Source: Eledone cirrhosa
Taxonomy: Eukaryota
DNA length: 64,000 bases
Direction: 5' to 3'
NCBI GenBank assembly: GCA_964016885.1
Contig: OZ024741.1
Span: 133,300,001-133,364,000 of the forward strand
The notes below the pieces were generated by a model. The model was not told the origin of the DNA. It made no database searches and saw nothing but the letters and a program-made list of their open reading frames with translations. A program made the translations under genes and the position numbers. Positions 4,695 through 45,780 of the stretch are shown one piece after another (within the stretch, counting starts at the first letter, position 1; every line of letters begins with the position of its first letter).

Positions 4695-5369
4695 TTAATC
4701 TGTTGTTTTAATATATATATATAATTATATATTCGTGTACAGATATTTGTGCATACACAATAACAAAATATAGACAAACGTATTTATTTCACGAGGCTCG
4801 ACAGCAGCAAAAACAACAACAAAATAGAAAGAGAAGGCAATTACGCTTTTGAAAAATCTTAATGGAAAATTATTTGCCTATTCACCCAAGGCGACTTCAT
4901 TTTTTATTACGACTTCTGCATCAATTGGTGAACATACGACGAAGCTGTTTCAGAAAGGAGGGATAAACAAGCCAATCTATGTTTAGAATCCCGAGCAACG
5001 CCGGGCCATTCTGCTAGTGGACACTAAAAGGATGTTTCAGTTTGACTGTTTTGCTCCGATTTCCATATATAAATATATATATATATATATATTTATTAAA
5101 ATAACAGATTAAAGTTTAAGCAAAGAATCGCTGCTTTCACCCTTAACGGGGATTTTAGTCTTAAAATTTATTATTATTACTATATATATACACACACACA
5201 TATATATATATCCATCAAATATATATACATATATATATATATATATTGGGTGGTTCAGTAGATTCGTGTTTTACTGAGGAAGTTACAAAAATCACCACTT
5301 TATGCTATGACAGAGTGTATATATTAAGCACAAAACGAATTTTCACATTAAGGTTTTTATTGATTATGC

Positions 5370-5440
5370 ACAGTTACAACCGTTTTCACAGATGGGTGGG
5401 TCAGAATCCGACTCCAGCCCAATCTGCTCATCAGACATGT
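5370..5440 (-). ncRNA. hammerhead motif (F3) in a TA-flanked island 5246-5500
   Basis: Reverse complement: acatgt-CTGATGA-gcagat...atctgt-GAAA-acggttg-TA-actgt; stem III imperfect. Confidence 0.65.
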
Positions 5441-6125
5441 TAATTAAGCAAAACCTAAATCTCATTTGATGGCATCCCGTCCTAAACGATGTACACACAG
5501 AGAAAGACATACTCCCAATCACACACTCACACACACATACATATATATATATATATATATATATATATATATATATATATATATATATATATATATATAT
5601 GTATGTATGTGTGGGTTTGGAAAATCAGTAATTTTTCTAGGTTGTCTCCGTTGATTTTAAAAAAAAACAGAATTAGTCGGTTAGTTTACATATTGAGACC
5701 ACAATCCATTTTATTTATTTCATAATGTATGGGATTTCTAGTACTGTAATTTTTTTTGACAAGTATAATGTTTGTTTTTTAATGTATAAAGAAAATCATT
5801 TGTCGCAGGGATGCTACTACTTGAAATAAAATTTCGCCGGAGATAGAGTAGCAAAATTAAAAAAGCAAGGAGAGGGGGGTATTAAGAGTGGGGACTTGGA
5901 AAACATCTGAAACATTAATGAGGGGGGGGGGGGTTATTCGAGACCCGAGAGTAACATCTAAGTTATGATGACTTTGGTCTACCTGCCTACCTACAGAGAT
6001 AGTTGAAATACACAGACAGACAGGTAGATTAGATATAACATTATTTTCCTAAACTAATCTAGTAGAAAATGTTTGCCACTTGACACGTGTTTTCTTACAC
6101 ACACACACACCAACATATATATATA

Positions 6126-6675
6126 TGTCACTGACTGAGGCGTCCCAGATGAGACACCTACCGGGGATAAAGGGTAAGGCCGTCTGGTCTCTTCCCATCA
6201 CTTCTGAATAATCCAGTCGTCCCCAGAACTGAGGGGGATATTTACCCGAGCCAGGGTCCGTTTGATGATCAGGTTTAGCTCGATGCGGCGGGCGAAACGA
6301 CCTGCACTCAGACCGCAGGCCAAACCACGTAGGCCTGTGGACTTACCACAGCAACATCTCAGACCCCACAGACATTGGCTCCCACTCCAAGTGCAATAGA
6401 AATGCGGAGCTCGTCCTGACTGAGAAGACCACTAATGTTGGCCATAAGCAGGGTATCAATCCAGTCCACTGAGAACTTTGTGTTTGCAGGAAATAAGCGG
6501 CATCTAGAAAATTGATCGGAATGATTAAAGAGAGAGAGAGTTAAGAGTTTTCCTTTGAACGCAGATTGTCCCATACTCTCTGCTTCCGTCTATCCTCATC
6601 AGTAACAGGAACTGACAAAGCCAGCTCTCTCCTCAGTAGTAAATCTTCATCCACTCCCTGGCGGTCCAAGTTGGT
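6126..6675 (-). mobile_element. CRE-clade non-LTR element fragment (Zn-knuckle and restriction-like endonuclease region), decayed
   Basis: Across frameshifts reads KQRVWD..LRISIALGVGANVC..RCCCG..GLACGLSAGRF..LNLIIKRTL..NIP..SDGKRPDGLTLYP..LIWDASVSD. Confidence 0.8.
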
Positions 6676-6869
6676 GTGTGTATGCATATGTGTGGCATTC
6701 GAATTGAGAGCGAGAGATTGTGATCAGTGTTCTGAATATAAAGATTAAAACGTTGATGAGGGTGAGGAAGAATGAATAATATTACATAGAATTTAGGGTA
6801 TGTAGACATAGAAAAGCAAAAGAGGTGAATAATTAGGAGGGAGCAAGAGGAAAGTGATGGGGGGGGGGG

Positions 6870-7217
6870 CAGCAATGACGGTTGGTATGTGAAATAGACT
6901 GTATCATTAATCTAGTGAAGAAATAAAACGTCTTTTTAATGTTTTTTTTTTAATATAACGAAGAGTGAAAGCTCGAGGAGAGCGTCTCTGTCTCTCTCTA
7001 TACACATATATATTAATAATAAGTCAACGGGACTAGCATGGGTTTCACTGTTAGTTCCGATTGCATCTCAGTGTACTCAATAGGTAATATTAATTAAAGT
7101 CAGCAATGACGGTTGGTATGTGAAATAGACTGTATCATTAATCTAGTGAAGAATAAGACGTCTTTTTAATGTTTTTTTAAAATATAACGGAGAGTGAAAG
7201 CTTGAGGAGAGCGTCTC
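6870..7217. repeat. ~118-bp direct repeat (6870-6988 and 7101-7217)
   Basis: cagcaatgacggttggtatgtgaaatagactg...gaggagagcgtctc occurs twice, separated by a TA-flanked island. Confidence 0.9.
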
Positions 7218-7523
7218 ACAGAGTAGACACATTTGCTTCAATACAACGCACGTAAATGGGTACCTTCAATCATACCCGTACTCGAGTTTCAGCCATACTA
7301 AATACAGCAATAGAGTGCACACCATCTACTATCTGCATTTATTATGCAACAATGCACAATTGGCGCATGTGGCTATATATATATATATATATATATATAT
7401 ATATATATATATATATATATATAGAGAGAGAGAGAGAGAGAGAGAGAGAGAGAGAGAGGGTGGGTGGGGATAAAAAGAGATTAACACAGATAAGCGATAC
7501 AGTGGGATTTATTTGTAGCATTT

Positions 7524-43766: not shown

Positions 43767-43998
43767 CATATATATATATATATATATACATATATATATA
43801 TATATACATATATATATATATACATATATATATATACATATACATATATATATATATATATATACATATATATATATATATACATATATATATACATATA
43901 TATATATATATACATATACATATATATACATATACATATATATACATATATATATATATATATATATACATATATATATATATATATACATATATATA

Positions 43999-44344
43999 TC
44001 ATCATCATCATCATTTCATTTTACGTCCGCTTTTTCCCTGCTTGCAAGGGTGGGACGGGAACTGATGCTGGCTTGATTTCTACAGCTGGATGCCCTTCAT
44101 AACACCAACCTCATTTACAGTGAGTGCTGGGTGCTTTTTTGCCGTGGCACCTCCACGACCACTTTGCAGTGGAATGATATGGACCCCAGTCCCTATCATC
44201 TTATTTCTACAGCTGAGTAAACTGGAGCAATGTGAAATAAAGTGTCTTGCTCAAGGAAACAACACATCACCCGGTCTGAGAATTGAACTCACAATCTTTC
44301 GATTGCAAGGCCAATGCTCTAACCACTAAGCCATGTGCCTCTCC
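43999..44344 (-). mobile_element. full-length CORE-type SINE
   Basis: Reverse complement of 33168-33513. Confidence 0.9.
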
Positions 44345-44346
44345 AA

Positions 44347-45520
44347 GACTTGCAATCTCTGTCTAAATGAAAAATTTACCATTATATCTAATTTAGATTC
44401 TATAATAAATAGACGCACTGACTTGTTTTCTCTCTGCTTGCATAAATTCCACAGAACATTCCATAAAGTATACAGCTAATATCCAATACTTTATCAATTT
44501 AGAATCCTTTTCTCAAAGGCACATATATATATATATACTTCTTTAAAAATATACCCATCTTTCTACCTTATTTCAAAGTTATTTGTTATACATTATATAA
44601 TACTTGTTACTCATTCTATATCACTCCTATTTATCACTTCCCTTTCTTCCTTTTCCTTTTCTTTTCTTTTTCTTTTAATTTCTAACCCCTAATCTGTACC
44701 TTTTCTCACTGTGCCTAACATTGAAACAATTATTACACAATACAATATATTCTTACTTTATATCACCTTGAAAAAATCCTTCGTAAACATAAACATTTTT
44801 TTTTACGTTAGATTATTCATCCTCAATTCATTATTTTTTCTCCCTTTCATCTAACTTACTCATGCTCATCTCACAATATATCCTTACTTACATTACTTGT
44901 GTTTTTTTAATAAACATATCAACATTTTCTTTCCATCTTAAATATTTTTCTTAATACATATTAACATTTTCTTTCCATCGCACATATTATTAAACCCTTA
45001 AATATTATTCTTAATACATATTAACATTTTCTTTTCATCGCACATATTATTAAACCCTTCAATATACAAACCTTAACTTTACATTATTTTTTTCTCTTCG
45101 TTAATTTTCAAATTCTTTTAATTTATACATTATCTTCCAACGGTTTTCAACCTCTCTATGTAAAACAATATATTTTTCTCAGTTATAAAAGCTATCTCTC
45201 TCTCTCTATTAGCCATCTCTCCTCCTATCTCATCCTTCCTCATTATACTCCTCCCCCTCCACTTTTTACTCTCATCTCCTCTTTTTCACCCCCCCCCCCC
45301 TCACATTTTTTTTTTCACAATATCACACATCAATTTAAAACTACTTTTCATATGTTGATTTAAAACTGCACTATTCACAAGTGTTTTTTAACCTTCATAT
45401 CATGTCTTCCTATTTTATCTGATGAAAACACAAATATTATTGCATGATGATATTTGTTTTTGAAATGCGCATAATAAAATACATGGAACTCTTTTAACCA
45501 TCTTTTGATCTTATATATTA
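44347..45520 (+). mobile_element. PLE family F1 second copy with canonical HHR at 45411-45481
   Basis: Colinear with 3430-4560; the HHR core and stems II/III are identical to the copy at 4452. Confidence 0.9.
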
Positions 45521-45641
45521 TATATATATATATATATATACATATATATAAATGAAAGGTATAGAAAGTATTGTAGCAAGAAGCCAACAGTATTCCATAA
45601 TATATATAAGTGACTATAGCGTCAAAATGAGAAAATAGTTA

Positions 45642-45780
45642 TAAAATAACAGATTAAAGTTTAAGCAAAGAATCGCTGCTTTCACTCTTAACGGGATCTT
45701 CTGAAATATATATTTGATTTATATTTATCCTTATCGAGCCCTCTTTGGATTTTAGTCTTCAAATTTATTATTATTATTAT
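45642..45780. mobile_element. F2 island: inverted arm (motif 45658-45707 -) joined to ~74 nt of tail in the opposite orientation
   Basis: Direct comparison with 27641-27800. Confidence 0.8.

Follow-up and report, generated by a model that had tools for sequence, protein, structure and literature searches.

Paired inverted arms, two end sites and a cap-like mark in copies of a Hydra-type Penelope-like element from Eledone cirrhosa

The lizard Penelope protein cuts and extends both target strands (Frangieh et al., 2024; PMC11167929), and the start site of Drosophila Penelope lies in the upstream repeat, for the regeneration of which no way is known (PMC2377424). On the rebuilding of this pseudo-long terminal repeat (pseudo-LTR) and the role of the hammerhead ribozyme, the literature is divided: no obvious mechanism has been seen (PMC2377424), circles have been proposed (PMC4209133), and ribozyme cleavage proved unnecessary in vitro (PMC11167929). 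Here we consider a repeat, F2, found in a stretch of 64,000 nucleotides of the E. cirrhosa genome (assembly GCA_964016885.1, contig OZ024741.1, positions 133,300,001 to 133,364,000 of the forward strand; the window), and its copies elsewhere in the genome. F2 is the 3′ end of a 3.3-kb Penelope-like element (PLE) with features of the Hydra clade.

We lean, by a modest measure, towards an explanation of its inverted insertions in which the two ends of a cut (TA)n target prime one RNA at two fixed internal sites, a capped linear RNA giving short scars and a likely circular one giving tandems. The broader proposal, that PLEs run two templates, a capped RNA starting at the hammerhead and a cut, circularised RNA, through one twin-priming machine, is made more tentatively. 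An original prediction based on the letters of the window had suggested double priming; this core idea is right, yet known in outline from print, because two-site priming on both strands has been shown in vitro for the lizard element (PMC11167929).

Two end sites and their pairing in inverted insertions

Element positions are given in the coordinates (R) of a natural 3,331-nt copy from locus L037; genomic copies were traced 5′ up to this length, beyond the 560-nt copy of the window. The latter (27641–28200), originally taken as full, corresponds to R2769–3331 and is 5′-truncated. About 380 loci were read, as a sample of the copies present genome-wide; a 23-mer upstream of the tail boundary has 40,036 exact matches, hence the element has at least 40,036 copies. 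Of these matches, 12,131 stop exactly at the second register of site A, followed by TA repeats, and 12,189 run exactly into the tail, which leads to site B, 86 nt beyond A. On contig C1, the first 100 anchors divide into 25 ending at the first register of A, 41 ending at the second, and 34 that continue into the tail, where one of them stops. Thus, the predicted fixed start of the inverted arm exists as a site, but not as a single base: it has two registers 5 nt apart (~R3240 and ~R3245), and A and B are 86–89 nt apart overall. Insertion into (TA)n is seen from the TA flanks of 83 of the 89 ends at A and 56 of the 63 at B; TA-flanked loose ends are also found in raw Illumina reads of the public run X24, which may come from another species (2,398 reads at A, 580 at B).

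Both sites match the TA target over 3–4 nt, and both read UAUUUG in an RNA with B joined to the element 5′ end; in short copies, they lie ~75 and ~165 nt from the RNA 5′ end. Match length does not choose the site, since the longer TATATAT run of the tail is a TA-flanked end just 30 times genome-wide, versus 12,131 times for the second register of A. The same count speaks against AT-richness alone as the property that defines site A, originally described as AT-rich, and led us to reject (TA)n homology as the sole determinant. Free folding of the site A region yielded no significant structure (z 0.5 to 1.0). Of the suggestion that both cut ends prime complementary DNA (cDNA), one of them at the RNA end, the first part holds, antisense copies from two fixed sites being present at both target ends; the second part does not, as the element's own 5′ end adjoins B in 472 exact head-to-tail junctions. 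Overall, priming at two sites is very likely.

The two sites are combined in a strict manner. Of 115 inverted pairs, 96 could be classified (19 end at a locus edge or are interrupted), and 95 of these join one A-ended and one B-ended arm, with one B–B pair and no A–A pairs; after merging by junction type, this is true for 81 of 82 distinct junctions. The same rule applies to all 17 resolved cases among 40 tandem loci counted by eye (seven have an unresolved far end, 15 lack an inverted arm, and one lacks the element), and to 22 of 23 and five of six cases in two other hammerhead-bearing families of the same loci. Junctions were expected to vary and to bear microhomology, and this has been observed: the 96 pairs represent 82 distinct types, and microhomology at 50 insert-free junctions averages 2.3 nt versus a null of 0.71 (reached in none of 2,000 shuffles). 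Opposite-strand joints occur at many positions in the Illumina reads of run X24. Bases are inserted at 31 of 81 junctions. The stub length proposed from the window, 15–74 nt, is too narrow, both arms spanning from ~15 nt to more than 3 kb genome-wide. The B arm passes site A in 16 of 32 pairs and ends within ~10 nt of A in seven of 32; in the remaining 16 pairs, as in all window copies, it ends inside the tail and has no template in common with the A arm. Overall, arm lengths are not correlated (Spearman 0.17, p = 0.36).

All head-to-head copies listed in the original prediction are present (a 16-mer occurs nine times with at most two mismatches, versus 0.27 expected). Remapped onto R, the features of the window are as follows, inverted pairs being given without strand.

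27641..28203, minus strand: tailed, 5′-truncated F2 copy (R2769–3331) between (TA)n runs
27741..27816, minus strand: predicted type I hammerhead with the non-canonical core CAGAAGA and a predicted cut at 27755/27754, from sequence reading and a constrained fold
27801, minus strand: equivalent of R3171, the base with which hammerhead stem I begins and a putative start of capped RNA, from the genomic pile of 5′ ends
27726..27731, minus strand: site A, the tail-less 3′ end, with two registers and an ATA(T) match of 3–4 nt to the TA target
27641..27725, minus strand: tail of ~86 nt, from site A to site B (27641)
1..57: inverted pair crossing the window edge; arm 1–44 (R3171–3214, ending exactly at R3171), stub 44–57 ending at B
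5089..5180: inverted pair; A arm 5089–5150 (R3184–3245, minus), B stub 5150–5180 (R3301–3331, plus)
16065..16255: inverted pair, present twice; A arms 16065–16094 and 16202–16231 (R3216–3245), ~10 inserted nt, 14-nt B stub
31783..32082: inverted pair; A arm 31783–32059 (R2968–3245), B stub 32065–32082 (R3314–3331)
45642..45780: inverted pair; A arm 45642–45706 (R3173–3237), B stub 45707–45776 (R3261–3330)
4596..4718, plus strand: single A-ended piece, R3124–3245
10089..10308, plus strand: single A-ended piece, R3009–3245, without an inverted partner

The copies at 16068 and 16205 form one 137-bp tandem duplication and were therefore counted as a single event. The piece at 4596–4718 is likely a passenger in another repeat, because its 5′ end recurs in six of 85 A arms; here and in L031, L120 and L217, F2 pieces with fixed ends (R3124; R3244–3294) lie inside another inverted-repeat family. 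At 27607–27620, on the other side of the TA run from the 27641 copy and facing its B end, lies a short A-type stub, likely a separate insertion into the same microsatellite. Two internal 140-bp repeats, 82% alike, are found at 27879–28157, in the 3′ untranslated region upstream of the putative start site. The window also holds inverted A+B pairs of H2 (~24200–24350 and 38400–38750), a second TA-targeting family that has a TATA box, a hammerhead whose core is canonical, and the same cap mark as F2, and a third hammerhead family, H3, is present in L004, L008, L015, L167, L249 and L251, with the same two-end layout and the same T–T pair at the base of stem II as in F2.

The F2 element is, judging by its sequence, almost certainly a Hydra-type PLE. 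Its open reading frame (ORF) starts at unit nt 45; at L035, a stop-free frame of 713 amino acids carries reverse transcriptase (RT) motifs and IVY...AYIG, a C-terminus of the GIY-YIG type, conserved in homologs, of which there were 809 matches. RLRWR is present in 51 of 89 5′ ends, with RMRWK and DKT in homologs, and the commonest linker and cysteine forms, each in the majority, are CNCRNRVDC (44), CDLC (65) and CKH (85); DKT is likewise a majority form, and all of these motifs are conserved in the homologs. There is no conserved cysteine pair within GIY-YIG among the homologs (no CCHH), and a Pfam search matched no RT and no GIY-YIG family. Partial tandems of the Penelope type (pseudo-LTR), inverted truncated copies and a one-sided tail are all present. 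Near-identical parts of the element are found in 20 runs from 16 studies of many organisms, with matching pieces in X5, X6 and X7; these may come from close relatives or from horizontal spread.

The G-marked 5′ end at R3171

In unselected sets, the 5′ ends of arms cluster at R3168–3180 (20 of the 68 A arms reaching that far, and 12 of 30 B arms), with none at R3133–3167; these tallies exclude L113–L142, since the query had selected for the additional G seen there at R3172. The template base just upstream of R3171 is T. In the first 100 of the 2,358 non-T matches, counted by eye, this position is occupied by G in 56, A in 22, and C in 22 cases, and none of the 56 G cases continues the template, that is, the G is untemplated. 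At true junctions it is found in 56 of 82 cases, versus 38 of 197 non-T cases in the background (p = 1e-14). R3171 is the first base of stem I of the predicted hammerhead and the A of TTAGTTT, which we take to fit the initiator consensus. The same mark is seen in H2: of 2,019 matches at the base with which its canonical hammerhead begins, the first 100 include 77 with G, and TATAAATA lies ~30 nt upstream. The pile at R3171 is also seen in raw reads, with 273 loose ends and an approximate doubling of depth. An extra G is a known trace of the cap in L1 insertions (PMC11702581), and we have good confidence that R3171 is a start of capped RNA, as far as such a start can be read from genomic ends.

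The mark also links the two arms of a pair. An inverted partner (41 ending at A, two partial) accompanies 43 of the 50 G-marked B arms, and none of these 43 partners passes R3171, versus 13 of 32 unselected A arms (p = 3e-6); the cap letter is present on both arms in ~10 of the 43 pairs. This pattern suggests that both arms were probably copied from one RNA by two primers, and the tail length would then be the spacing of the two active sites.

Tandem units and the weighing of mechanisms

The hammerhead has the type I layout with CAGAAGA in place of the CUGAnGA core; a related family with the canonical core has the same layout. G-marked stops are found in 399 of 5,488 terminal units and in none of at least 317 upstream tandem units, where the sole G-marked match is a substitution. 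No stop at R3171 was seen in 30 inspected upstream units, and of 33 unselected ones, 16 extend past R3165, the longest reaching R975. Thus, a linear one-unit capped RNA cannot be the template of upstream tandem units. Strong-stop transfer from the cap to the 3′ repeat was rejected as well, as the stop at the cap would then be equally frequent in upstream and terminal units. At L384 (G000:C2:61196330-61197780), one TA-flanked insertion consists of seven 151-nt units closed at R3216–3218, the predicted ribozyme cut; the joint is crossed by both arms and is absent elsewhere in the genome. A circle is the best fit for the tandems, multi-unit RNA or end-to-end jumps also being possible; on this reading of the copies, we give circular RNA as tandem template a slight preference.

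These data can be combined in the following scheme. RNA polymerase II would start at R3171, within the 3′ repeat, at the first base of the hammerhead. On uncut capped RNA, two primers would yield short arms, each ending where the template ends, at the cap; the enzyme at B could displace the copy made from A, and both cDNA ends would then be united by end-joining. In the two-template view, this RNA would give tens of thousands of short head-to-head scars. Ribozyme cuts in two successive repeats would release a unit-length uncapped RNA, likely closed into a circle, on which the same two primers would make long arms and more-than-unit tandems, rebuilding the upstream repeat together with its promoter.

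Several observations weigh against this scheme. Cap, ribozyme cut and circle are all inferred from DNA. The raw-read consensus at the R3171 pile does not end in G, in ~10 G cases the G is common to the partner arm, and among B arms chosen for length, the A partner is short in six of 13. The hammerhead core has A at position 4, its constrained fold has −11.7 kcal/mol versus a minimum of −15.1, and an Rfam search gave no hammerhead match. No pile of 5′ ends is seen at the predicted cut (385 ends versus 409 one base away); by the same count, the idea that arms end there, taken from the window copy at 16068, was rejected. Three of the 33 unselected upstream units stop at R3172–3178 without G, and part of the 317 upstream units belong to one derived family. 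L384 is a single locus with a second end other than site A, and the same deletion is present in two of its units. In vitro, cleavage was unnecessary, and the cut DNA had no homology to the start sites (PMC11167929).

The main rival to a single RNA is an asymmetric dimer with two RNAs of the same class, one per subunit, one subunit always using A and the other B. This would allow the double copying of R3171–3245 in 16 of 32 pairs without strand displacement, and a dimer has been predicted for the lizard protein (PMC11167929); the strict A+B pairing and the common template class (none of 43) would need a separate cause, both strands used the same start sites in vitro (PMC11167929), and at L384 a joint absent from the rest of the genome is crossed by both arms. 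We consider this explanation unlikely. Slightly less probable still is twin priming without a circle, with the long tandems copied either from linear RNA of the multi-unit or read-through kind, or by end-to-end jumps on linear RNA that has been cut. A two-unit locus does exist (L298), unprocessed RNA was the main substrate in vitro (PMC11167929), ribozyme activity is only predicted, and an end-to-end jump accounts for L384 as well as a circle does. However, tandems of one unit are by far the most frequent (100 listed junctions include a single full-unit double junction) and should then show G-marked stops, which none of at least 317 does, and cut linear RNA should leave ends at R3217, where there is no pile.

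In the fold-back explanation, B-primed cDNA snaps back and copies itself, and an endonuclease cut of the intermediate makes the A end, a resolution considered for the Hydra clade (Craig et al., 2021; PMC8557442). It predicts the A+B pairing and A arms that lie within B arms, which is what the 43 capped pairs show, and palindromic junctions do recur. It is contradicted by the 16 of 32 pairs, all window copies being of this kind, in which the B arm ends in the tail without template overlap; in ~17 of the 43 capped pairs, both arms end at R3171, 1–8 nt apart (one of them more), mostly too tight for a hairpin primer, and the cap letter on both arms also argues against it. Fold-back is thus very improbable as the general route and could make a minority of insertions. 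Finally, there are seven recurrent junction types and some derived composite families, as expected if ancestral rearranged copies had been amplified; given 82 distinct types in 96 pairs, joints in raw reads and the same rule in two other families, such amplification, or assembly artefacts, is refuted as a general account, with hardly any probability left to it. Copying of one RNA from two primers, with a capped and a likely circular template, remains the reading that we prefer.

Some tandems have features of their own. L384 resembles the birth of a retrozyme-type repeat. In L086, L093, L094, L096, L097, L103, L271, L304, L327 and L329, tandems jump internally from unit nt 36–256 to R3048–3237, giving mini-units of 170–530 nt, one form of which (~nt 112–115 to R3077) has been amplified as a family.

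Comparison with known systems

F2 is a known kind of element that follows a published priming principle; what is new is a set of quantitative constraints and the use of the cap mark to test a hypothesis of long standing. The genome stores thousands of dated, cap-marked reaction products; from these, two template classes can be told apart, the start can be located to a single base, and the two priming sites are seen to be used in a coordinated way. A literature search found no report of a cap mark, twin priming or a hammerhead start site in PLEs; the supplementary files of PMC11167929 and PMC8557442 and papers behind a subscription, outside its scope, may bear on this.

L1 twin priming is similar in that the second target end primes on the RNA, junctions have microhomology, and an extra G is found at the cap (PMC11702581). 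However, in L1 the second start is variable and adjoins the end of the first copy, whereas in F2 it is fixed and the arms often overlap; as 16 of 32 B arms pass site A, this is not single-pass twin priming of the L1 type. For PLEs and animal retrozymes, hammerhead cutting and ligation have been hypothesized to produce circles for more-than-unit copying, and retrozymes, like F2, have tandem units of 150–400 nt (PMC4209133; PMC7229834; bioRxiv 10.64898/2026.07.22.740005). For autonomous PLEs, the circle was a proposal, to which F2 adds genomic tests, namely, the contrast between units with and without the cap mark, and L384.

PAc, a Poseidon element of Anolis, resembles F2 in the extension of both strands and in two internal starts that bracket a tail, near the repeat–ORF junction downstream of the hammerhead (Frangieh et al., 2024; PMC11167929). 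According to the same source, the PAc starts are not homologous to the cut DNA and are the same on both strands, whereas A and B of F2 match the TA target by 3–4 nt and have UAUUUG in common, and one of each is used per insertion.

The closest likeness is to the Hydra clade of PLEs with a C-terminal endonuclease (Craig et al., 2021; PMC8557442), with which F2 has in common the RWK-like, DKT, CxCx5C, CxxC and CxH motifs, the (TA)n target, partial tandems, an inverted truncated copy and a tail at one end. F2 differs in its length of 3.3 kb, with ~1.2 kb after the ORF, its 86-nt tail, compared with 30–40 nt in Hydra, its non-canonical hammerhead core, and its number of copies, at least 40,036 (PMC8557442 for the Hydra data). 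Thus, the Hydra clade, described from few families, can reach very high abundance.

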